DNA of 64,000 nucleotides from Candidatus Nanoarchaeia archaeon (GTDB taxonomy: Archaea; Nanobdellota; Nanobdellia; Pacearchaeales; GW2011-AR1), in contig JAQTST010000001.1 in NCBI GenBank assembly GCA_028711165.1, positions 149,872 through 213,871 on the forward strand, written 5' to 3'. This document shows positions 4,005 to 50,989 of this stretch, in pieces (the first letter of the stretch is position 1; every line of letters begins with the position of its first letter). Position numbers and translations under genes: made by a program. The notes under the pieces are model-generated. The model ran no database searches. It was not told the DNA's origin and worked only from the letters and a program-made list of their open reading frames with translations.

Positions 4005-5378
4005 TTAAAACCTCTTCATCTTTTTTCCGAACTTCTTTGCAAACTTCATCATCTGCTTTTGTGACATTCCTTCTGACATGTCTGCATTCCCAACACCAGA
4101 CTTAATCATGTCGTTGAGAAGTTTGTATTGCTTGATAAGAGAACGAACATCAGCCGTCGGAACTCCTGCACCTTTTGCTATTCTCGCGATTCTTGAAGTT
4201 TGCTTTTCCAAAAGTTCTGGGTTTTCTTTTTCCTCAGCCGTCATTGATTTTACAATATGCTCCCACTTCGCAACTTTGGCTTCCTGACTTTCTAACTTGC
4301 CCTCTGGAATTTTTGCCTTGACATCTGACAATCCCGGAATCATTGATTTGATTTTTTCAAACCCGCCCAGCGACGACATTGACTTGACTTGTTCGATAAC
4401 ATCGTCGAGAGTCAGTTTTCCTTCTTCAATATTTTTCTGAATTTTACTCTGCTGGCTTTCTTCTGTTACTGATTTTATTTTTTCAATCAGGGTTTCCAAA
4501 TCTCCCATCCCCAAAAGTCTGGCGAGGAACGAGCCCGGATTAAATTCTTCGATGTCATTTATTTTTTCCCCTGTTCCAATAAAATAAACTGGTGCCTGAG
4601 TTTCTGCACAAGCTGTCAGAGCTCCTCCTGCTTTTGCTGTCGAGTCCATTCTTGTAATAATAACTCCTGAAATATCAACAGCGTCCTTAAACTGAGAAGC
4701 CTGCTGTTTTGCTGCCTGCCCGATATCTGCGGGAATAACTAAAATTCTTTCTGTTGGTTTTATCTCCTTATTGAGAGATTTTATTTCATCAATTAATTCT
4801 TTATCTAAAGTGTGCCTTCCTGCTGTATCGACGAGAATTAAATTATAATCTTTCAGCTGCTTCGAATATTTTTTCCAGAGCTTGACTGGATTTTTTTCTT
4901 CAGCGTCGATAAAATAATTCAGTTTGTGTTTTTCTGCGAGCTGTTTCAATTGCTCTGCTGCTGCAGGACGATGAACATCCAATCCTACCAAAGCAACTCT
5001 GAATCCTCTCTTGGCGTAATAATTTCCTAACTTTGAAATTGTCGTAGTCTTTCCGCTTCCGTAAAGTCCGAGAAGAAGAACAATATTTTGTTTCCTATCT
5101 AATTTTAACTGCTTGTATTCTCCGAGAATTTTCAGAAGTTCGTCGTGAAGAAGTTTGATTAAATGCTCTTTTTTTTCTATGCCTTTAACTCTCTCGTCCA
5201 TTGCGGACTTTTTTATCTTGTCGCTGAGTTCTTTTACTAACGCCACATTGACATCTGCTTCAATGAGCGCTCTCTGCAATCCTTTTACAATTGAATCAAG
5301 CAAATCCTTGTCGAGAAATATAGCATTCGCTATTTTGTCAGTTGCTTTTTTTATTGCTTCTCCAAGTTTCTCTAGCAT
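4005..5378 (-). CDS. srp54: signal recognition particle protein SRP54
   Basis: GTPase motifs GLYGSGKTTT, DTAGR and TRMD, plus a Met-rich C-terminal M domain. Start placed at MLEKLGE (ATG at 5378) because the 10 upstream codons of the track ORF run into repeat A2. Confidence 0.95.
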   Translation of the reverse strand: MLEKLGEAIKKATDKIANAIFLDKDLLDSIVKGLQRALIEADVNVALVKELSDKIKKSAMDERVKGIEKKEHLIKLLHDELLKILGEYKQLKLDRKQNIVLLLGLYGSGKTTTISKLGNYYAKRGFRVALVGLDVHRPAAAEQLKQLAEKHKLNYFIDAEEKNPVKLWKKYSKQLKDYNLILVDTAGRHTLDKELIDEIKSLNKEIKPTERILVIPADIGQAAKQQASQFKDAVDISGVIITRMDSTAKAGGALTACAETQAPVYFIGTGEKINDIEEFNPGSFLARLLGMGDLETLIEKIKSVTEESQQSKIQKNIEEGKLTLDDVIEQVKSMSSLGGFEKIKSMIPGLSDVKAKIPEGKLESQEAKVAKWEHIVKSMTAEEKENPELLEKQTSRIARIAKGAGVPTADVRSLIKQYKLLNDMIKSGVGNADMSEGMSQKQMMKFAKKFGKKMKRF

Positions 5379-5393
5379 TGTATTATTGTTAAG

Positions 5394-5454
5394 AATTTCG
5401 CTCGTCAATCCCGCCCTCCCCGTCCAGAGGGAATTAATTAGTACTCGCGAAATT
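5394..5454 (+). repeat. family A hairpin/C-tract element, copy A2
   Basis: AATTTCGC...GCGAAATT terminal inverted repeat, inner TCCC/GGGA stem, core CCCGCCCTCCCC. 61 bp, the same length as A1. Confidence 0.8.
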
Positions 5455-5506
5455 GGAAATTTATAGAAAAATGAGCCAAATGAGAGTTAATAAATTTGTG
5501 GTTTGA

Positions 5507-8418: not shown

Positions 8419-9813
8419 ATGGATATTAAAAAAAGAGGTTTTGCCGTCGGTGCAATAATTTTTGTATCAATTATTCTTTCAAGCAATTTTATTTTAGCGG
8501 AATGGACTGAAGATTTGAATGAAGATTTAGTTGCTTATTATAAAATGGATAGTATCACTTCAGGGATTATAATTGATTCTGTGAATGGTTTTAACGGAGT
8601 ATTGAACAATTCTCCTACATTAGATTCGGGGGGAAAAATTGGAAATGGAATAAAGTTTAATGGAATCAATCAGTTTGCTGAGATACCTCACAATCCTGGT
8701 TTTAATATTCAAAATATAACTATTTCGGTGTGGGTTCGGCTTAATTCAACGCCAACTTTAACTCCCTATGATGCTGCGACAGTTATATCTAAGGATAGAG
8801 ACGACGGAAGAAGTTGGGCGATAAATTCTGGATTGAATATTAGTTCTAATTGGTCTGCATACATAAATAATGGTGCTCCCACTTTAGTTGCGAAAGGAGG
8901 AGAACTTACACTTAATAACTGGACGCATATAATCATGACTAAAAATTCTACTGCCCTTTATATATACATTAATGGAATTTTGGTTGGACAAAGTAGTGCT
9001 AGTCCTGCAATAGCCGAGACTACTGTCCCAATTCAAATTGGAGCTACTGCTTTTAGTGTAATGCGAAGATTTCTTAACGGGACAATAGATGAGATTGGAA
9101 TTTGGGATAGGAGTTTAACCTCTTCGGAAATTTCTCAGTTATATAATAATGGAAATGGAATAACTTATACAACTGATTTTTCAATTCCCCCAAATCAATC
9201 TGAATTCTGGACATTAAATGGGACAAAGTTGTATCCTTCTAATTTAAATTATTTTGTCGGTATCGGAACTTCAAATCCGACGACGGCTTTAGAAGTTATC
9301 GGAAATATTCTTGCAAGTAATAGTATTTCTTTGGGTAATAATAGTTTGAGGTTGGGAACACAGGATGCTTACGGAAGATATCAGATATGGAATTTCCTGC
9401 CGAATAGTGTTTTAAGATTAGGTTCGCTAGGTTCTGATGGAGACCCGCAGACAGTATCTTCTGAAGGTATTGTTGTATACGGTAAAAATGCACAGGGAGA
9501 CACAATGTCTTCTCCGGATTTTGGTTATGCGAGAGTAAAACCAGACAGAATTGGACTTTATACTTCTAAAGATGACATAGCAGATTATTATTTCCGAGTT
9601 GACCCAACTAGCTTGTATCTGAAAAATAATTCGTTTACAAAGATGTTTGAAGTAATTAGAGAAACTGGTTTGGTAAATGCAAAGGCAGGTTATTCTGTTG
9701 ATAGCCAGGCAGGAATAACAGATAATACTGGTTTCTGGATGTGCAAGGATTCAAACTGTTCTACAACTTGCCAAGCGGATATCAAAGGCGGAATAATTGT
9801 CGGGTGTAATTAA
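8419..9813 (+). CDS. secreted LamG/concanavalin-A-like lectin-domain protein
   Basis: Signal/TM segment. LamG_3-like blocks LVAYYKMD, GKIGNGIKFNG, ITISVWV and DEIGIWDRSLTSSEISQLYNNG. The C-terminal half contains VGIGTSNPTTALEV, a motif common in fibre-like proteins. Confidence 0.65.
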   Translation: MDIKKRGFAVGAIIFVSIILSSNFILAEWTEDLNEDLVAYYKMDSITSGIIIDSVNGFNGVLNNSPTLDSGGKIGNGIKFNGINQFAEIPHNPGFNIQNITISVWVRLNSTPTLTPYDAATVISKDRDDGRSWAINSGLNISSNWSAYINNGAPTLVAKGGELTLNNWTHIIMTKNSTALYIYINGILVGQSSASPAIAETTVPIQIGATAFSVMRRFLNGTIDEIGIWDRSLTSSEISQLYNNGNGITYTTDFSIPPNQSEFWTLNGTKLYPSNLNYFVGIGTSNPTTALEVIGNILASNSISLGNNSLRLGTQDAYGRYQIWNFLPNSVLRLGSLGSDGDPQTVSSEGIVVYGKNAQGDTMSSPDFGYARVKPDRIGLYTSKDDIADYYFRVDPTSLYLKNNSFTKMFEVIRETGLVNAKAGYSVDSQAGITDNTGFWMCKDSNCSTTCQADIKGGIIVGCN

Positions 9814-23737: not shown

Positions 23738-23786
23738 TTTCCATTAAGATAAGAATTTATAAATGTTTTTAGAAATGCGGAGTATA

Positions 23787-23865
23787 ACTCGCGACCTCGC
23801 TCATTTATCACTGATCCTCCCTTCGCGAAATCGCTCGGGATTTGCACCTCGGTTCAAATTAAGTT
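23787..23865 (-). mobile_element. family B miniature insert 3' of tRNA-Leu, flanked by a 14-bp duplication of the tRNA 3' end
   Basis: AAATGCGGAGTATA at 23773-23786 and 23866-23879 (exact). The insert, read in tRNA sense, is AACTTAATTTGAACCGAGGTGCAAATCCCGAGCGATTTCGCGAAGGGAGG...AATGAGCGAGGTCGCGAGT. It aligns with the inserts at 27928, 29199, 33443 and 50857. Confidence 0.6.
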
Positions 23866-23868
23866 AAA

Positions 23869-23952
23869 TGCGGAGTATAGGATTTGAACCTATGTAGGCA
23901 CTAAGCCATCAGCTCCTAAGGCTGACCCATTTGACCGCTCTGGCAACTCCGC
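23869..23952 (-). tRNA. tRNA-Leu(UAG)
   Basis: Acceptor GCGGAGT/ACTCCGC+A, anticodon arm TCAGC-CTTAGGA-GCTGA, long variable arm TGGCTTAGTGCCTAC, T arm ATAGG-TTCAAAT-CCTAT. Confidence 0.9.
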
Positions 23953-23953
23953 T

Positions 23954-24016
23954 TGTAAGACACCTTATCGGTTTCTTGACACTCAATTTCCCTTTGCAAT
24001 ACTGCTCAGGGCTGAT
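23954..24016 (-). repeat. family C leader module, copy C1 (between promoter and tRNA-Leu)
   Basis: TGTAAGACACCTTATCGGTTTCTTGACACTCAATTTCCCTTTGCAATACTGCTCAGGGCTGAT is nearly identical to 26582-26643. Similarity continues into the TATA region. Confidence 0.75.
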
Positions 24017-26581: not shown

Positions 26582-26643
26582 TGTAAGACACCTATCGGTT
26601 TCTTGACACTCAACTTCCCTTTACAATACTGCTCAGGGCTGAT
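26582..26643 (-). repeat. family C leader module, copy C2 (5' of rps8e)
   Basis: TGTAAGACACCTATCGGTTTCTTGACACTCAACTTCCCTTTACAATACTGCTCAGGGCTGAT. Differs from C1 by a few substitutions and a 1-nt indel in a hairpin loop. Confidence 0.75.
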
Positions 26644-26956: not shown

Positions 26957-27022
26957 AGACAGTTCTGCCTGATAATTTTTTGCTCTAATAAGTTATATAA
27001 ATGTTTTTTGCGTAATCTAACT

Positions 27023-27916
27023 ATGATTAAAATAACTTTTCTGGGGACTTCTGATGCTATTCCGAGCGCGGAAAGAAATCATACTTCTATTTTATTGAAT
27101 TACAAAGATGAGAATATCCTCGTCGATTGCGGGGAAGGGACGCAGAGACAATTCAGAAAGGCGAAATTAAATCCGAACAAAATTACGAGAATATTAATCA
27201 CACACTGGCACGGGGACCATGTCCTCGGGATTCCTGGGATTTTGCAGACATTAAGTTTCAGCGAATACAAAAAAACGCTTTACATTTACGGGCCAAAAGG
27301 AACAAAAGAATTCATGAGAAATCTTCTTAACACTTTCGTGTTCCATAAAAATTTTAAAATTGACGTTGAAGAAGTAGACGGCAAATTTTTTGAGACAAAT
27401 GATTTTTATCTTGAGTCTGAAAATATGAGCCATGGAATTCCATGCAATGCTTACACTTTTGTTAAAAAAGGAAATCTGCGAATTGACAAAAAGAAACTTG
27501 CGAAGATAAAAATTCACGGACCGATTTTGAAAAAACTGAAAGAAGGAAAAGACATTGTTTACGACGGGAAAAAATATTTGGCTAAGAATTTAACGTACAA
27601 AGAAATTGGGAAAAAAGTTTCTTTTGTATTCGATACCTCGTTTAATGACCGGATTGTTCCATTTGTGAAAGATTCTGATTTGCTTGTCTGCGAGTCGACT
27701 TTTGGCGTGGAACTTGAAGACAAGGCAGATGAGTTTAAGCATTTGACTTCGAAACAAACTGCAGAAATTGCGAAGAAGTCTAAATCCAAAAAACTTGTTC
27801 TTACTCACATCAGCCAGAGATACAACAAAAACCCCAAGAAAATTTTAGACGCTGCGAAGAAGGTTTTCAAGAATTCTGTTTTGGTTAAGGATTTGGACGA
27901 GATTGAAATTAAGTAA
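27023..27916 (+). CDS. rnz: ribonuclease Z (tRNA 3' endonuclease)
   Basis: Metallo-beta-lactamase motif ITHWHGDH; KITFLGTS N-terminus. Its stop codon lies inside the 22-bp direct repeat at 27906-27927. Confidence 0.9.
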   Translation: MIKITFLGTSDAIPSAERNHTSILLNYKDENILVDCGEGTQRQFRKAKLNPNKITRILITHWHGDHVLGIPGILQTLSFSEYKKTLYIYGPKGTKEFMRNLLNTFVFHKNFKIDVEEVDGKFFETNDFYLESENMSHGIPCNAYTFVKKGNLRIDKKKLAKIKIHGPILKKLKEGKDIVYDGKKYLAKNLTYKEIGKKVSFVFDTSFNDRIVPFVKDSDLLVCESTFGVELEDKADEFKHLTSKQTAEIAKKSKSKKLVLTHISQRYNKNPKKILDAAKKVFKNSVLVKDLDEIEIK

Positions 27917-27927
27917 CGCCCCGGACA

Positions 27928-28005
27928 ACTCGAGCCCTCACTCGTTGCTTTAAATTTTTTCTCGCACTCGTGAAAACTCTCTGGATTTGCACCTCGGTTC
28001 AAATC
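27928..28005 (-). mobile_element. family B miniature insert between rnz and tRNA-Arg(UCU), flanked by a 22-bp duplication
   Basis: AAATTAAGTAACGCCCCGGACA at 27906-27927 and 28006-28027 (exact, 100 bp apart). The insert in tRNA sense is GATTTGAACCGAGGTGCAAATCCAGAGAGTTTTCACGAGTGCGAG...AACGAGTGAGGGCTCGAGT. Confidence 0.6.
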
Positions 28006-28016
28006 AAATTAAGTAA

Positions 28017-28091
28017 CGCCCCGGACAGGATTTGAACCTGCGACCCTTAGCTTAGAAGGCTAATGCTCTATCCAGGCTGAGCTACCAGGGC
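28017..28091 (-). tRNA. tRNA-Arg(UCU)
   Basis: Acceptor GCCCTGG/CCGGGGC+G, D arm GCTC-AGCCTGGATA-GAGC, anticodon arm TTAGC-CTTCTAA-GCTAA, T arm GCAGG-TTCAAAT-CCTGT. Confidence 0.9.
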
Positions 28092-28984: not shown

Positions 28985-29102
28985 TTTTATATATCGTGCC
29001 TCTGTGCAATTATGATTAACTTTAAAAGTTTTGAATTTCTTTCTTTTCTATGCGGACTCAGAAAATCTCTGCGAGATTCTGGTCACGCACTCACATGTTC
29101 GC

Positions 29103-29197
29103 GCGCGGGTGGCACAGCGGCTACTGCGTCTCCCTGCAGATTATAAATTAAATAATCGGAAAGGAGATTTTCACGGGTTCGAGTCCCGTCCCGCGCT
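29103..29197 (+). tRNA. tRNA-Cys(GCA) with a 22-nt intron at 37/38
   Basis: Acceptor GCGCGGG/CCCGCGC+T. Anticodon stem TCTCC...GGAGA with loop CTGCAG|A. Intron about 29140-29161 (ATTATAAATTAAATAATCGGAA). T arm ACGGG-TTCGAGT-CCCGT. Confidence 0.85.
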
Positions 29198-29198
29198 T

Positions 29199-29288
29199 AT
29201 TTTATAAAAGGACGAGAACCCTGGGTTCGACGAGCGATTTCACAAGTGCCGGAAAAATTTTGAATGCAACGAGTGGGGTCGGGAGCTT
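29199..29288 (+). mobile_element. family B miniature insert 3' of tRNA-Cys, flanked by a 15-bp duplication
   Basis: TCCCGTCCCGCGCTT at 29184-29198 and 29289-29303 (exact). The insert contains GAACCCTGGGTTCGACGAGCGATTTCACAAGTGCCGG...AACGAGTGGGGTCGGGAGCTT and is colinear with the other B copies in tRNA sense. Confidence 0.6.
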
Positions 29289-29347
29289 TCCCGTCCCGCG
29301 CTTTACTCTGTAAAAATATTTATAAATTGTAGTGCCTAAGTTATGTA

Positions 29348-33272: not shown

Positions 33273-33329
33273 ATTTTGCTCAGTATCCCGCCCCCCACCC
33301 CAATGGAAGTTAATTAGTCTTCACAAAAT
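33273..33329 (+). repeat. family A hairpin/C-tract element, copy A3 (degenerate)
   Basis: ATTTTGCTCAGTATCCCGCCCCCCACCCCAATGGAAGTTAATTAGTCTTCACAAAAT. Aligns along its full length with A4. C runs of 3, 6 and 4. Confidence 0.7.
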
Positions 33330-33341
33330 AAAAATTAATTC

Positions 33342-33442
33342 ATGGCTCTGGTCCTCGCTTCGCTGCGGGCGAGCCATCTCAATCCTTCAATGGCTCTGGG
33401 CTAAAATTTAGGAAAAATTTTGCCACATAGCCTATGGCTCTG
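33342..33442 (-). repeat. three extra copies of the tRNA-Met 3' terminal nonamer, each preceded (tRNA sense) by a 5-bp hairpin
   Basis: ATGGCTCTG at 33342-33350, 33390-33398 and 33434-33442, plus 33543-33551 in the tRNA itself. Hairpins in tRNA sense are CTCGC-(10 nt)-GCGAG, GGCTA-(24 nt)-TAGCC and GGGAG-GTCAGCA-CTCCC. Confidence 0.7.
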
Positions 33443-33542
33443 GGGAGTGCTGACCTCCCTAACTCGCGACCTCCCTCATTCAACACTGACCCTACTTTCG
33501 TGAAATCGCTCGCCTCTGCCTACATCAAAGCTTGTTTAATTT
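33443..33542 (-). mobile_element. family B miniature insert 3' of tRNA-Met/Ile(CAU)
   Basis: Between nonamer copies at 33434-33442 and 33543-33551. Contains CGAGCGATTTCACGAAAGTAGGGTCAGTG...AATGAGGGAGGTCGCGAGTT (tRNA sense), colinear with the Leu copy. Confidence 0.6.
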
Positions 33543-33543
33543 A

Positions 33544-33615
33544 TGGCTCTGAAGAGAATTTAACTCTCGACCTCTGCCTTATGAGAGCAGCGCTCTAACA
33601 CTGAGCTACAGAGCC
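33544..33615 (-). tRNA. tRNA with CAU anticodon (elongator Met or Ile2)
   Basis: Acceptor GGCTCTG/CAGAGCC+A (G1-C72, so not an initiator). Anticodon arm CTGCT-CTCATAA-GGCAG. T arm GAGAG-TTAAATT-CTCTT. Confidence 0.85.
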
Positions 33616-33618
33616 TTT

Positions 33619-33691
33619 CTGTTTTATGATTCTGTAGCGAACTAATGCCTTTTAGCAAGGGGTTAGTGTAAGGGGATGTGCCCCTCATGAA
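33619..33691 (-). repeat. 73-bp insert 5' of tRNA-Met, flanked by a 13-bp duplication of the tRNA 5' end
   Basis: CTACAGAGCCTTT at 33606-33618 and 33692-33704 (exact). The insert contains the hairpin GGGG-CACAT-CCCC. Confidence 0.6.
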
Positions 33692-33760
33692 CTACAGAGC
33701 CTTTATAATTAGCAAAAGAAAAAGATAATTTAAAAGTCTTCTTATAGAATAAAAACCAGA

Positions 33761-35054: not shown

Positions 35055-35210
35055 ATGGATTCCCTTTTAGATATTCTTTTGGACTTTGTTTTGCGTATGT
35101 CTATAATAAGGGGGAGCAAAAAATGGGAATTTTTTTGGGGTTCACTGTTATTAATTATTATATTGGCAATTGTATTCTTTATCATTCTTAAAATCTTTAA
35201 AATTGTCTAA
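35055..35210 (+). CDS. possible small membrane protein (51 aa)
   Basis: MDSLLDILLDFVLRMSIIRGSKKWEFFWGSLLLIIILAIVFFIILKIFKIV. Support is weak. Confidence 0.25.
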   Translation: MDSLLDILLDFVLRMSIIRGSKKWEFFWGSLLLIIILAIVFFIILKIFKIV

Positions 35211-35725
35211 GGCTTAATCCATCTTACTTCATAATAACTTATGTCGCCTTCTTCATCGACGATTGCGAGAAGCAGATTCTTTTTTGTTGAATGGGCTACT
35301 CTGTTTTTTGCTGAAAATTCATGCCATGTAAATCTTTTTGATTCATGTTCAGCGAAGACAATCCACTTTGCATGCGATACACCCGGCTTACTTCCTTTGG
35401 CGTAAACTCTAAAATCCGCGCCGAATTTCAGTGCAGTTTTAACTACATAACCTCTTTCTCTCAAATCCTTGAACACCAAATATTTTATCTGAATCTTTTT
35501 GTCAACTCTTCTGCATTTTTCTATAAATTCTTTTTTTGAAAGTTTCTTGTCTCTGGAAAATATATCAATTTTTCCTTTTTCCAAAAGAAATAATGCTTCT
35601 GTCAGGGAATATTGTATCTTGTCATCTTTGGGTTCCCCGAAATGACTTTTCTCGTAAAGAGAGAACGCGTCTGCGTCGATGCTTGAAATTATTTCTCCCA
35701 TAATATATGCTTTTATTTTTTCCAT
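35207..35725 (-). CDS. endA: tRNA-splicing endonuclease EndA
   Basis: Catalytic domain pattern RGYVVKTALKFGADFRVYAKG...HAKWIV. Confidence 0.9.
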   Translation of the reverse strand: MEKIKAYIMGEIISSIDADAFSLYEKSHFGEPKDDKIQYSLTEALFLLEKGKIDIFSRDKKLSKKEFIEKCRRVDKKIQIKYLVFKDLRERGYVVKTALKFGADFRVYAKGSKPGVSHAKWIVFAEHESKRFTWHEFSAKNRVAHSTKKNLLLAIVDEEGDISYYEVRWIKP

Positions 35726-41811: not shown

Positions 41812-42198
41812 TCAAGCTCCTTCAATTGCTTTCAATTTATCCTGAATGCTCATTAATTCATTTTCGAGTTTTTCATCAAAATCCTTTTTTATTGCCGGCG
41901 GAGATATCTTTTTTATTTCTCCGACTGCTGTCCTTTCAGGAATCTTAAAAAATGGAAAATAATTTTTTGTTTTTTTCAGGGCAGCGTTGAGTTCTCTTAT
42001 TGTCTGATATATTTTGCTTCTTATCTCGAACTCTTCTGCCCGAAGAGAATTATATTTCCTTGCTATTTTTATTATGTTAAGAAAAGACATTTCAGAAGAA
42101 AGCAAATCTTTTTTTGCATCAACAGATTCGTAATAACCCAACCTGAAATAAACCGGATTATTATTTTCTACCTTCGGAAGACTTTTTTTAGTTTTCAT
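41812..42198 (-). CDS. hypothetical protein, translationally coupled to 42195-42878
   Basis: 4-nt overlap with the upstream ORF; helical protein. Confidence 0.5.
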   Translation of the reverse strand: MKTKKSLPKVENNNPVYFRLGYYESVDAKKDLLSSEMSFLNIIKIARKYNSLRAEEFEIRSKIYQTIRELNAALKKTKNYFPFFKIPERTAVGEIKKISPPAIKKDFDEKLENELMSIQDKLKAIEGA

Positions 42199-42878
42199 TC
42201 TACCTGCGAGAAAATGTTGCTATCTATTTTTTCAATTTTTTCTTTAATCTGTTTAATCTCACTTTCCCATAACGCTAATTCTTGCTCTTCTTTTTCTCTG
42301 ACTTTTTTTACATCTTCAACCATATTTTCTATTTCTGAAATTTTTCTTCTTACTTCTTCAAAAGTTCTTGAACCCTCTTCAAATTTATCTATTCGGATAA
42401 AAATTGGCTCCTGACCTCTACTCGAGCTCCCACTCATTGCATTAAATTTTTCCGGCATTCGTGAAAACTCTCGCTCATTGCTATCAAATCTTTTTCTGGC
42501 ATTCGCGAAATCACTCGGTTCTGCTTCTCTTGTTCTTGTCCTCTGCAATGGAGCGGAAAAATCTCTTTTTGTTCCTTCTATTCTAAGAGGTCTCTGCATC
42601 ATCGGCAGTTCTTCTGAAAATACCTCTGCTTCAACCCCGACCCCTTTCTTCCCAGCAATTGCTTCTTTGATTGTATCCTGTGAGAATTTATTTCCTAAAC
42701 TTCCATTCGGAAAGCTTGGTAATTGCGGAAGCTGTTCAGGCATCTCTGGCATTTCTTTTACAAAATCTTTTTCTCCTATTCCGGGAAATTCCGGCAATTG
42801 CGGAAGCTGTGGAATTTCAGGAAGTTTTGGAATGTCTGAATTCTCCCCTTTTTTTTCTTTTTTCTTAAATAAAGCCAT
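42195..42878 (-). CDS. hypothetical protein with LP-rich N-terminus and C-terminal coiled coil
   Basis: IPKLPEIPQLPQLPEFPG repeats; C-terminal EPIFIRIDKFEEG...coiled coil. Contains two copies of the family-B core motif (42454-42480 and 42498-42523). Confidence 0.55.
   Translation of the reverse strand: MALFKKKEKKGENSDIPKLPEIPQLPQLPEFPGIGEKDFVKEMPEMPEQLPQLPSFPNGSLGNKFSQDTIKEAIAGKKGVGVEAEVFSEELPMMQRPLRIEGTKRDFSAPLQRTRTREAEPSDFANARKRFDSNEREFSRMPEKFNAMSGSSSRGQEPIFIRIDKFEEGSRTFEEVRRKISEIENMVEDVKKVREKEEQELALWESEIKQIKEKIEKIDSNIFSQVE
42454..42523 (+). repeat. two copies of the family-B core motif inside a CDS
   Basis: GGCATTCGTGAAAACTCTCGCTC and GGCATTCGCGAAATCACTCGGTT, 44 bp apart, so the host ORF reads them in different frames. 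Confidence 0.55.
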
Positions 42879-50696: not shown

Positions 50697-50714
50697 AACT
50701 CGCGACCTTGCTCT
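50697..50714 (+). repeat. family B terminal fragment abutting the 5' end of tRNA-Arg(UCG)
   Basis: AACTCGCGACCTTGCTCT matches the distal ends of the Leu and Met B copies (AACTCGCGACCTCGCTCA and AACTCGCGACCTCCCTCA). Confidence 0.5.
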
Positions 50715-50855
50715 GGGCTTATAGTTTAACGGATAGAACAACCGGCTTCGGACTGGGTTTCTTTCTTTAGAAAAGAAAGAAACTACACTGGTAGAAAGAA
50801 ACTACAATTCCGAGGAAGAAACCGGTTAATCGGGGTTCAATTCCTCGTAAGCCCA
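50715..50855 (+). tRNA. tRNA-Arg(UCG) with a ~69-nt intron at 37/38
   Basis: Acceptor GGGCTTA/TAAGCCC+A. Anticodon stem ACCGG (50741-50745) / CCGGT (50822-50826), loop CTTCGG|A. Intron about 50752-50820. T arm CGGGG-TTCAATT-CCTCG. Confidence 0.8.
50755..50811 (+). repeat. family D hairpin element, copy D1 (fills the tRNA-Arg intron)
   Basis: GGGTTTCTTTCTTTAGAAAAGAAAGAAACTACACTGGTAGAAAGAAACTACAATTCC. 11-bp stem GTTTCTTTCTT/AAGAAAGAAAC, then CTAC-ACTG-GTAG. Confidence 0.75.
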
Positions 50856-50856
50856 T

Positions 50857-50924
50857 ATTATTTTGAATTGAACCCTTGGGTTTCATTTGTTTGTAAAACG
50901 AATGAGGCTGAACGAAGTGACGCC
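50857..50924 (+). mobile_element. family B-like miniature insert 3' of tRNA-Arg(UCG), flanked by a 19-bp duplication
   Basis: CAATTCCTCGTAAGCCCAT at 50838-50856 and 50925-50943 (exact). The insert ATTATTTTGAATTGAACCCTTGGGTTTCA...AATGAGGCTGAACGAAGTGACGCC shares the proximal TTGAACC..GGGTT and AATGAGG blocks with other copies. It is the most diverged copy. Confidence 0.5.
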
Positions 50925-50989
50925 CAATTCCTCGTAAGCCCATGCGCGTTTTACATAAATCTTTAAAAAATATTTTTCTATCTTATTAT

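Follow-up and report, generated by a model that had tools for sequence, protein, structure and literature searches.

A 64-kb stretch of archaeal DNA (contig JAQTST010000001.1 of a Candidatus Nanoarchaeia archaeon, positions 149,872 to 213,871; this whole stretch is called the window here) carries a transfer RNA (tRNA) gene, tRNA-Met/Ile2(CAU), with four stacked copies of its 3' terminal nonamer separated by hairpin modules and with a duplicated 5' end around a further insert. The feature is real, reproducible and general to the lineage. On balance, we are somewhat inclined to see in the array the result of miniature elements without genes that inserted time and again at tRNA termini, each insertion duplicating the terminus, with only the gene-preserving events kept by selection.

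The tRNA-Met array

The nonamer ATGGCTCTG occurs exactly four times in the window (at 33342, 33390, 33434 and 33543), all inside 210 nucleotides (nt), against 0.36 copies expected; none of 100 shuffles reached four. The gaps between copies measure 100, 35 and 39 nt, and the copy with the highest coordinate overlaps the 3' end of the tRNA(CAU) gene (33544-33615, minus strand). The full repeat at this gene is 10 nt long, which 0.15% of 2000 shuffles of the downstream 350 nt attain. At the other end of the gene the 13-mer CTACAGAGCCTTT is found twice, at 33606-33618 and 33692-33704, enclosing 73 nt, whereas no such duplication is expected by chance. An initial annotation of this DNA had described the four copies with their spacings, three hairpins beside them and the 5' duplication, and every coordinate that it gave proved right. 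It had also allowed for an assembly artefact or for a chance frequency of the nonamer. The artefact is excluded: the 447-kb contig of the metagenome-assembled genome (MAG) GCA_028714745.1 and three assemblies made independently, each from a single run (SRR22315506, SRR22315508 and SRR22315509), show the same array base for base, and homologous arrays are present in other MAGs and metagenomes. Chance recurrence is ruled out by the shuffle tests.

Syntenic loci of relatives were fetched by means of the neighbouring TFE-like protein, the gene order being EndA, TFE-like, S17e, tRNA-Met, VanZ/HIT; the compared contigs and loci are designated by L and a number. Their tRNA-Met genes fall into two types. 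Type I (window, L058, L059) has the D loop GTGTYA and the T loop TTAAATT, and type II (L052, L054, L056, L060, L063) has the D loop GCGGTA and the T loop GTCAGCA. The tertiary pair 19-56 covaries with the D loop, being U-A in type I and G-C in type II; in the window gene (D loop AGTGTTA, T arm GAGAG-TTAAATT-CTCTT) it is U19-A56 in place of G19-C56. Both T loops are unusual, neither having the usual TTC, and the distribution of the two types conflicts with the relatedness given by EndA and S17e.

The second copy in the window consists of GGGAG-GTCAGCA-CTCCC followed by the nonamer, that is, a type II T arm plus 3' end; it is headed by GTAGGCAGAGG and split at the variable loop by a palindromic hairpin that we call element E. 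In L052 and L054, the type II tRNA-Met has exactly this sequence as its working T arm, and the T arms of L056, L060 and L063 differ from it in the 3' strand alone. The initial annotation had seen in the hairpins a mimicry of the T arm, and the likeness is stronger than it claimed, for one hairpin is the actual T arm of the tRNA-Met of sister lineages. Since a type II T arm cannot serve a type I body, window copy 2 is a displaced relic and no part of the mature tRNA. The 100-nt segment that ends in this T arm had been taken for a full copy of a repeat family (family B), which needs correcting: it is a composite of a 19-nt spacer, an 11-nt copy of anticodon stem and variable region, a 51-nt E, the dinucleotide TA and the 17-nt foreign-type T arm. 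The same 11-mer GTAGGCAGAGG stands at the head of the E module in L056 and L060. As EndA and S17e place the window, itself of type I, nearest the type II genomes L052 and L056, the locus is a mosaic in which either the working gene or the relic comes from another lineage.

At the start of module 2 the tRNA 5' end recurs in degenerate form (GGCTATGTGGC against GGCTCTGTAGC), after which comes an A/T-rich hairpin, GGCAAAATTT-TTCCT-AAATTTTAGCC; with such a beginning, the module is a collapsed, minihelix-like tRNA relic. Among the data examined, modules 2 and 3 have homologues only in L052 and L056, with 31/31 and 31-32/34 nt identical, and in L052 the homologue of module 3 is 103 nt long and has an additional internal hairpin. 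The order is 2-3 in the window and in L052 and 3-2 in L056, the EndA proteins of L052 and L056 being 98% identical. An E module lies beside the tRNA in L056 and L060, and L052 is without it. The nonamer is present once in L058, L059 and L063, which have no array, twice in L054 (12-nt repeat, 70-nt insert), three times in L052, four times in L056 and at least twice in L060-62, where all three assemblies end inside E. The idea of repeated rounds of insertion at one hotspot, one of two readings offered in the initial annotation, is backed by these relatives with one, two, three or four copies and by the reordered, partly homologous modules between the copies; the insertions with duplication at other tRNAs and the clean empty sites in relatives, treated below, support it as well.

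In relatives, the promoter follows the scheme TATA box, about 30 nt, tRNA 5' end. The conserved TATA box of the window lies about 30 nt ahead of the upstream 13-nt copy, and the 5' duplication is missing in most relatives; it follows that 73 nt were inserted after gene position 10 and that the downstream copy then took over. The 3' part of this insert is homologous to the 91-nt 5' insert of L059, and an inverted copy of the tRNA 5' end, GCTACAGA, lies inside it at 33631-33638. At the far end of the array, the T-rich stretch past the final nonamer is likely a transcription terminator, to judge from archaeal oligo-T terminators.

The same layout at other tRNA genes

The layout is not peculiar to tRNA-Met. 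Five of the seven window tRNAs are followed by an insert of 68-100 nt and then by an exact copy of 10-22 nt of their own 3' end: 14 nt at tRNA-Leu, 22 nt at tRNA-Arg, 15 nt at tRNA-Cys, 19 nt at the intron-bearing tRNA at 50715 and 10 nt, in four copies, at tRNA-Met. No 3'-end repeat layout was found at the tRNA-Thr and tRNA-Val of the window. Repeats of at least 14 nt, as at the four tRNAs other than Met, appeared in 0 of 2000 shuffles of the downstream 350 nt. A pattern scan for the insert core led to the Nanoarchaeota MAG WY1.bin114 and to about 26 low-GC metagenome contigs. In the related Pacearchaeota contigs, a hairpin-rich insert of 35-100 nt stands behind at least ten tRNAs and is in turn followed by 9-31 nt that repeat the tRNA's own 3' end exactly. 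Genes of this kind include those of tRNA-Tyr, Ile, Val, Gly, Asn, Cys and Glu, whose repeats measure 13-31 nt, and three copies are stacked at tRNA-Tyr (L005) and tRNA-Ile (L044). Duplications of the 5' end are found at tRNA-Glu in L016 and L044, at tRNA-Ile in L044 and at tRNA-Met in L059, the last being 15 nt long and associated with a partly homologous insert.

Empty sites exist in relatives. L043, which is syntenic with the Leu-Arg-Cys cluster of the window, has an identical tRNA-Arg without the insert, and its flank aligns with the sequence beyond the second copy of the window. The window tRNA-Arg has therefore gained 78 nt plus a 22-nt duplication, 11 nt of which are trailer. L054 gives the same outcome with its tRNA-Arg, which is also insert-free; moreover, its tRNA-Cys has no insert, while the tRNA, the leader and the downstream GlyRS are identical to those of the window.

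Read in the sense of the tRNA, the inserts have a common order: tRNA end plus some trailer, A/T-rich spacer, short inverted T loop, pseudo T arm (spanning the 5' stem strand through the loop), E and the exact repeat. The tRNA-Leu insert of the window is an example, with inverted T loop, pseudo T arm and E (23787-23837). In L040 and L041, pseudo T arm and repeat are identical to the host's own T arm and 3' end, and therefore the second copy is a tRNA 3' part with E in its T loop or T stem. The window tRNA-Leu and tRNA-Arg have an identical 27-nt pseudo-T-arm block that derives from neither host, and their E copies belong to different subfamilies, which argues that duplication and E are separate events. 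The E copies at the same position in the window and in L056 are of different subfamilies too, which shows that E arrived independently of the duplication.

Some further observations concern these tRNA genes. In L024, a tRNA-Val(GAC) at 2628-2760 has a normal promoter and 5' two-thirds, then passes from the T loop straight into E and ends in a 3' end with an acceptor mismatch; there is no intact 3' part, and the arrangement resembles that of L026 minus the segment between the two T-arm copies. It looks like a dead gene or, less likely, an unrecognised intron. The leader of about 55 nt of the window tRNA-Cys (29048-29102, TATGCGGACTCAGAAAATCTCTGCGAGATTCTGGTCACGCACTCACATGTTCGC) is identical in L054 and similar in L036; it could represent a small RNA transcribed together with the gene, or a signal for processing. 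ARAGORN calls the tRNA at 50714-50856 'SeC(tca)' with a 69-nt intron, while Rfam gives generic tRNA at 50.2 bits, so that the isotype is doubtful. A hairpin GGGTTTCTTT...AAGAAACTACAnTGGTAGAAA recurs in this intron (50750-50820), in the 5' insert of the L059 tRNA-Met (4622-4660) and upstream of tRNA-Ile in L042 and L044; therefore, the same small elements populate both tRNA introns and tRNA flanks. Finally, the short-read contigs L002-L004, L050 and L060-L062 stop within the tRNA-Met gene or within E, and therefore the repeats fragment assemblies at tRNA loci.

Element E

E is a palindromic element of 51-57 nt whose 10-bp stem covaries strongly; nhmmer finds 46 copies of it in about 300 kb of related DNA. 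In an alignment of 38 copies, its 15-pair hairpin is paired in 95.3% of 555 cells, and sliding the partners lowers this value to 25-48%. Nine of the 15 pairs have changes on both sides, and none of 500 shuffles was as good. Two positions are nearly always G.U, which is C.A on the opposite strand, and the sense strand folds better than the antisense; the conserved G.U pairs thus indicate that one strand is read. Tandem G.A/A.G pairs flank the stem symmetrically on both sides.

Copies of E are not confined to tRNA flanks. Some are nested in a repeat that we call K or in a G-rich motif, some lie in intergenic DNA, and the open reading frame (ORF) 42195-42878 contains E in frame. E is absent from otherwise identical sites, and a comparison of filled with unfilled sites gave no target duplication. 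Both orientations relative to the neighbouring tRNAs exist (L033, L036), which is easier to reconcile with recognition as single-stranded DNA than with a function in the tRNA transcript. A search of Rfam with E gave no match, even at E-value <= 10. A scan of viral contigs returned only chance matches in phage capsid genes, which makes a viral origin of E appear unlikely, and the two bacterial matches in the genome scan (L008 and L009, GC 0.65) are chance. A Pfam scan of 20 window ORFs for a partner gene found housekeeping genes only and no HUH/Y1 transposase among them.

Three other assignments were tried and rejected. E is neither a C/D-box or H/ACA small RNA nor a k-turn, as it has no C/D boxes, its symmetric G.A pairs come without a 3-nt bulge and Rfam gives no match. 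It is not a bulge-helix-bulge (BHB) intron that would join the tRNA body to the downstream copy, since there is no BHB and the type II T arm is unfit for the type I D loop. Nor was the window T arm built from the 3' end of E, with which it shares 13/14 nt, because L058 and L059 have the same TTAAATT T arm without any E.

Several sequences that surround E copies deserve mention. ORF 42195-42878 (minus strand, 227 amino acids, no Pfam match) contains E at 42420-42517 in 1.8 tandem copies, which encode ...SDFANARKRFDSNEREFSRMPEKFNAMSGSS...; its orthologues in L021 and L037 have a single copy. Repeat K (GCAAAGGGAAATTGAGTGTCAAGAAACCGATAAGGTGTCTTACAA) is present in the window at 23953-23997, where it separates the tRNA-Leu promoter from the 5' end of the gene, and 2.6 kb away at 26582-26622, as well as in L043 at 8841-8882; in L017, L018, L026, L029, L034 and L048 it is split mid-way by an E copy. 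Two hairpin copies at 1975-2049 and 5381-5455 of the window, 76% identical and with a 9-bp stem CAACTTCGC...GCGAAGTTG, enclose the G-rich motif GGGAGGGCGGGAT, which elsewhere is host to E. An E-less form of the G-rich motif also lies directly behind the Met array, at 33285-33306.

The features of the window are collected in Table 1. Its genes include those of archaeal GlyRS and LeuRS, the tRNA-splicing endonuclease EndA (35207-35725) and tRNase Z (27008-27916), and homologues of one neighbouring protein carry the names Pacearchaeota or Nanoarchaeota.

Table 1. Positions of the array components and of the tRNA-end repeats in the window.
Feature	Position	Strand	Basis or remark
tRNA-Met/Ile2(CAU), intact, type I	33544..33615	-	ARAGORN; Rfam tRNA 69.8 bits; same type in L058, L059
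Nonamer copy 1 (CAGAGCCAT), of the working gene: acceptor 3' strand, discriminator A and 1 nt of trailer	33543..33551	-	
Module 1 spacer (AAATTAAACAAGCTTTGAT)	33524..33542	-	
Second copy of anticodon-stem 3' strand and variable region (GTAGGCAGAGG), start of the displaced tRNA 3' part	33513..33523	-	
Element E, palindromic hairpin, interrupting the displaced tRNA 3' part at the variable loop	33462..33512	-	nhmmer, covariation, fold
Displaced T arm GGGAG-GTCAGCA-CTCCC	33443..33459	-	Comparison with relatives
Nonamer copy 2	33434..33442	-	
Module 2 (35 nt)	33399..33433	-	31/31 nt identity to L056; homologue at tRNA-Met of L052, L056
Nonamer copy 3	33390..33398	-	Followed by native-type trailer (TGAAGGATTGA...), as behind the tRNA in L052, L063
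Module 3 (39 nt): trailer-like TGAAGGATTGAGATGG, hairpin CTCGC-CCGCAGCGAA-GCGAG, GAC	33351..33389	-	Homologues in L052, L056
Nonamer copy 4 (final)	33342..33350	-	
T-rich stretch (GAATTAATTTTTATTTTG) past the final nonamer	33324..33341	-	Sequence
Downstream copy of the 13-nt 5' duplication: working tRNA 5' end (10 nt) and 3 upstream nt	33606..33618	-	
73-nt 5'-leader insert with hairpin GGGG-CACAT-CCCC	33619..33691	-	
Upstream copy of the 13-nt 5' duplication, at normal promoter distance	33692..33704	-	
TATA-like promoter box GACTTTTAAATTAT	33725..33738	-	Kept in all relatives
tRNA-Leu: 14-nt repeat TATACTCCGCATTT (23866-23879, 23773-23786), 79-nt insert	23773..23879	-	
tRNA-Arg: 22-nt repeat (28006-28027, 27906-27927), 78-nt insert, E 27928-27981	27906..28027	-	Empty sites in L043, L054
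tRNA-Cys: 15-nt repeat (29184-29198, 29289-29303), 90-nt insert, E 29231-29285	29184..29303	+	Empty site in L054
Intron-bearing tRNA 50715-50855: 19-nt repeat, 68-nt insert with shorter E-like hairpin	50838..50943	+	

Origin of the arrays

The following scheme is built on what has been observed, namely insertions and duplications, empty sites, a T arm of foreign type, the family of E elements with its structure, and an array content that varies. The working tRNA-Met/Ile2(CAU) gene would be flanked at both ends by the stacked footprints of separate insertions of tiny hairpin modules, and each insertion would directly duplicate the tRNA terminus that it would otherwise cut off. The duplication would amount to 9-10 nt at the 3' end and 13 nt at the 5' end here, and at other tRNAs to 9-31 nt of exact repeat (about 45 nt with mismatches), often extending into the lineage-specific trailer. 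The copy continuous with the tRNA body would stay intact and the displaced copy would be moved outward. As the tRNA genes are apparently single-copy, selection would keep only the events that preserve the gene. E would be a second, independent actor that settles in hairpin sequences, T-arm-like ones among them, and leaves no visible target duplication; it would be tolerated in displaced copies, which would explain why the second copy is almost always split by it. Later on, modules would have been gained, lost and reordered as the short repeats recombined unequally and lineages exchanged sequence. The modules themselves would be selfish or neutral rather than useful.

Candidate routes for the cutting and joining are widely staggered cleavage with fill-in, duplication of the attachment-site (att) type by a recombinase, and templated break repair. 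Staggered cleavage or gap repair, with subsequent selection for genes left intact, is favoured by duplications that are long, variable and inclusive of trailer and by the fact that both ends are hit. In favour of att-type recombination are the foreign T arm and the extension of tRNA-like sequence past the exact repeat, and the T-loop copies in inverted orientation point to fold-back synthesis.

Several points weigh against insertion of miniature elements with terminal duplication. No transposase, integrase, recombinase or Cas1 was found in the 20 large window ORFs (Pfam) or in the annotated neighbourhoods, and E was not found in viral contigs. We know of no transposase family that combines target duplications of 9 to about 45 nt with a palindromic junction such as the inverted T loop beside the pseudo T arm. 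In several loci (L040, L041) pseudo T arm and host tRNA agree perfectly, unlike what a fixed mobile sequence would give, and in another genome the second copy at tRNA-Cys follows an acceptor sequence that is different. Only tRNA-Met loci have modules 2 and 3, and the identity reported above compares with 57% at the third codon positions of EndA; such conservation could mean function rather than junk.

The alternative that we rank second, possible but on the unlikely side, is accretion by an att-type recombinase. Miniature cassettes mobilised in trans would use the tRNA end, leaving attL in the working gene and attR in the displaced copy, and reuse of the site would stack cassettes as in the accretion of cis-mobilisable elements and integrative and conjugative elements (ICEs) or in integron cassettes. 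The tRNA-like sequence of the second copy reaches 5' past the exact repeat, as it does in attR, and in L040 and L041 pseudo T arm and repeat together reproduce the T arm and 3' end of the host. In the window, the second copy has the tRNA-Met T arm of another lineage and is identical to the host over the last 9-10 nt only, as expected if an attP block from a type II host had recombined in a type I host. The newest (E) module is nearest the tRNA in the window and in L056, module order varies among close relatives, and precedents exist in integration-derived tRNA fragments (PMC9897764) and in the tRNA-Thr of Caldiarchaeum (PMC3293823). However, the bracketed DNA of 35-100 bp is gene-less and below the size of a double-stranded circle, no integrase was found nearby, and the repeats take in up to about 36 nt of lineage-specific trailer. 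Besides, one pseudo T arm serves two tRNAs (Leu, Arg) with different cores, and 5' ends are also struck. A remnant of one large integrated element was rejected, since long-range tRNA-end repeats were found at no locus and the inserts are consistently 35-100 nt.

A useful trailer seems to us improbable. The modules of hairpin plus acceptor strand would then be RNA signals in the trailer or leader of the pre-tRNA (decoy or entry site for tRNase Z, RNase P or the CCA-adding enzyme, or determinants of termination or stability) or minihelix RNAs. Such a role would be in keeping with modules 2 and 3, which are confined to one locus and considerably more conserved than synonymous sites, with the hairpin directly ahead of each repeat and with the 5'-strand-like sequence of module 2, which is able to pair with its nonamer. 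In two genomes with differing acceptor stems, the second copy at tRNA-Cys agrees with the host's acceptor strand, and the oligo-T terminator behind the final copy means that the array is probably transcribed. Yet syntenic L058, L059 and L063 do without arrays, and elsewhere number and order vary. Copies have decayed (L046 tRNA-Tyr; copy 4 of L056, which has a mismatch), and in the module 3 hairpin of L056 a pair is broken without compensation. The type II T arm is unfit for the type I D loop, the Thr and Val tRNAs of the window have no such trailer, and there is no Rfam match. For the second reading of the initial annotation, an array of working minihelices, no evidence was found, and it has the three relatives without arrays against it.

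Very improbable, in our opinion, are mere repair scars at fragile tRNA genes (broken by conflict between transcription and replication or by a tRNA-gene-directed nuclease, healed by microhomology-mediated templated synthesis of the snap-back or loop-out kind, and invaded by E later). In their favour are inverted copies of host T loop or 5' end a few nt from direct copies, the varying duplication length, the involvement of both ends and the agreement of pseudo T arms with the host. Against them, local sequence is not the source of the spacers and hairpins, the Leu and Arg loci have an identical 27-nt pseudo-T-arm block and the same modules sit at the same tRNA across different genomes.

A bolder version of insertion at tRNA termini, which we offer as a rather improbable speculation, is a dedicated single-strand or structure-guided recombination system in Pacearchaeota, integron-like or HUH-like. 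It would dock at the folded T arm and acceptor end, shuttle cassettes of 'hairpin plus tRNA end' in, out and between lineages, remodel tRNA 3' halves, of which the exchanged T arm of the window would be an example, and seed the non-canonical introns and split tRNA genes that are typical of small archaea.

Significance

The origin of interrupted, split or rebuilt archaeal tRNA genes is a long-standing question, and the link to mobile elements that has been proposed is based so far on few large integrated elements. The genomes compared here show tRNA-gene disruption in miniature, with empty sites, single hits and stacks. Further stages are also seen: a foreign T arm beside a working gene of the other type, a tRNA-Val without intact copy, and the same hairpins in introns and flanks. 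The order of events thereby becomes testable by comparative genomics and RNA-seq. A practical consequence is that the repeats break short-read assemblies at tRNA genes and can mislead tRNA annotation.

Comparison with known systems

The initial annotation knew of no annotated feature class for the array; partly fitting classes do exist, namely att-type tRNA fragments, target-site duplications and palindromic elements related to MITEs (miniature inverted-repeat transposable elements) or repetitive extragenic palindromes (REPs). The att fragments left by the integrases of archaeal viruses, plasmids and ICEs are alike in that a direct repeat of a tRNA 3' segment brackets the insert and the gene-side copy keeps the tRNA whole, which is what is found here; moreover, the displaced copy may hold the variant of another host, and the regenerated site may be reused to give stacks. 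They are unlike the present case, in which inserts are 35-100 nt and gene-less, repeats of 9-31 nt include trailer, 5' ends are hit, and no integrase or recombinase was found in the inserts, the 20 ORFs or the annotated neighbours. Integration-derived partial tRNA genes bracket 9-23 kb between repeats of about 44 bp and come with an integrase (PMC9897764), and the tRNA-Thr locus of Caldiarchaeum is disrupted by a 1.8-kb recombinase element (PMC3293823).

Casposons and CRISPR Cas1-type integrases resemble our arrays by duplicating the 3'-distal part of a tRNA, by using a site twice and by placing the newest unit beside the 'leader'. Casposons make a fixed 14-bp duplication at tRNA-Leu, and the units of their tandem arrays have nothing but the duplicated segment between them (PMC4779613). 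The inserts studied here have neither Cas1 and PolB nor terminal inverted repeats, and in place of a fixed duplication of 14 bp (14-15 bp for the class) the lengths run from 9 to about 45 nt. CRISPR arrays have repeats of 24-48 nt, unique spacers of about the same size and cas genes; here the repeat is 9 nt, the spacers of 35-100 nt are common to several genomes, and no cas genes were seen.

The 46 copies of E make it a many-copy, short non-coding element in the manner of MITEs, and its imperfect palindrome with a hairpin on one strand is what is found in REP/RAYT or IS200/IS605-derived elements. Like REPs, palindrome-associated transposable elements and MITE-like elements, E is short and strand-specific, and is found in intergenic, nested and in-gene positions. 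Unlike them, it is a single hairpin without terminal inverted repeats beyond its own stem, visible target duplication or a partner gene found, and the tRNA-end duplications, from 9 to 31 nt and more, are not of fixed length. The palindromic elements of Rickettsia sit inside protein genes, and E in ORF 42195-42878 resembles them. To our knowledge, the preference of E for T-arm-like sequence beside tRNA genes has been described nowhere. Insertion sequences of the IS1634 group make long target duplications of variable length, and so are alike in giving direct repeats of widely varying length from one family; they are unlike in being kb-sized bacterial elements with a DDE transposase and no tRNA tropism. 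The repetitive hairpin-forming elements of organelle genomes (PMC2800124) are like E in being short multi-copy hairpins.

Archaeal non-canonical introns and split tRNAs are also short, hairpin-rich interruptions in the same lineage, and one hairpin family occurs both in the window intron and in the flanks of relatives. A BHB intron lies inside the mature tRNA and has two staggered 3-nt bulges and a 4-bp helix, whereas our modules are external to the mature tRNA, the closure of E consists of symmetric tandem G.A pairs, and the E-containing tRNA of L024 is without the 3' strand of the T stem. No description of this miniature form was found in the literature searched. The phenomenon shares a known logic, by which the tRNA end is duplicated, the gene is kept and the site is reused, and differs from the known systems in its scale, its variable repeats, its action at both ends and the tropism of E for the T arm.

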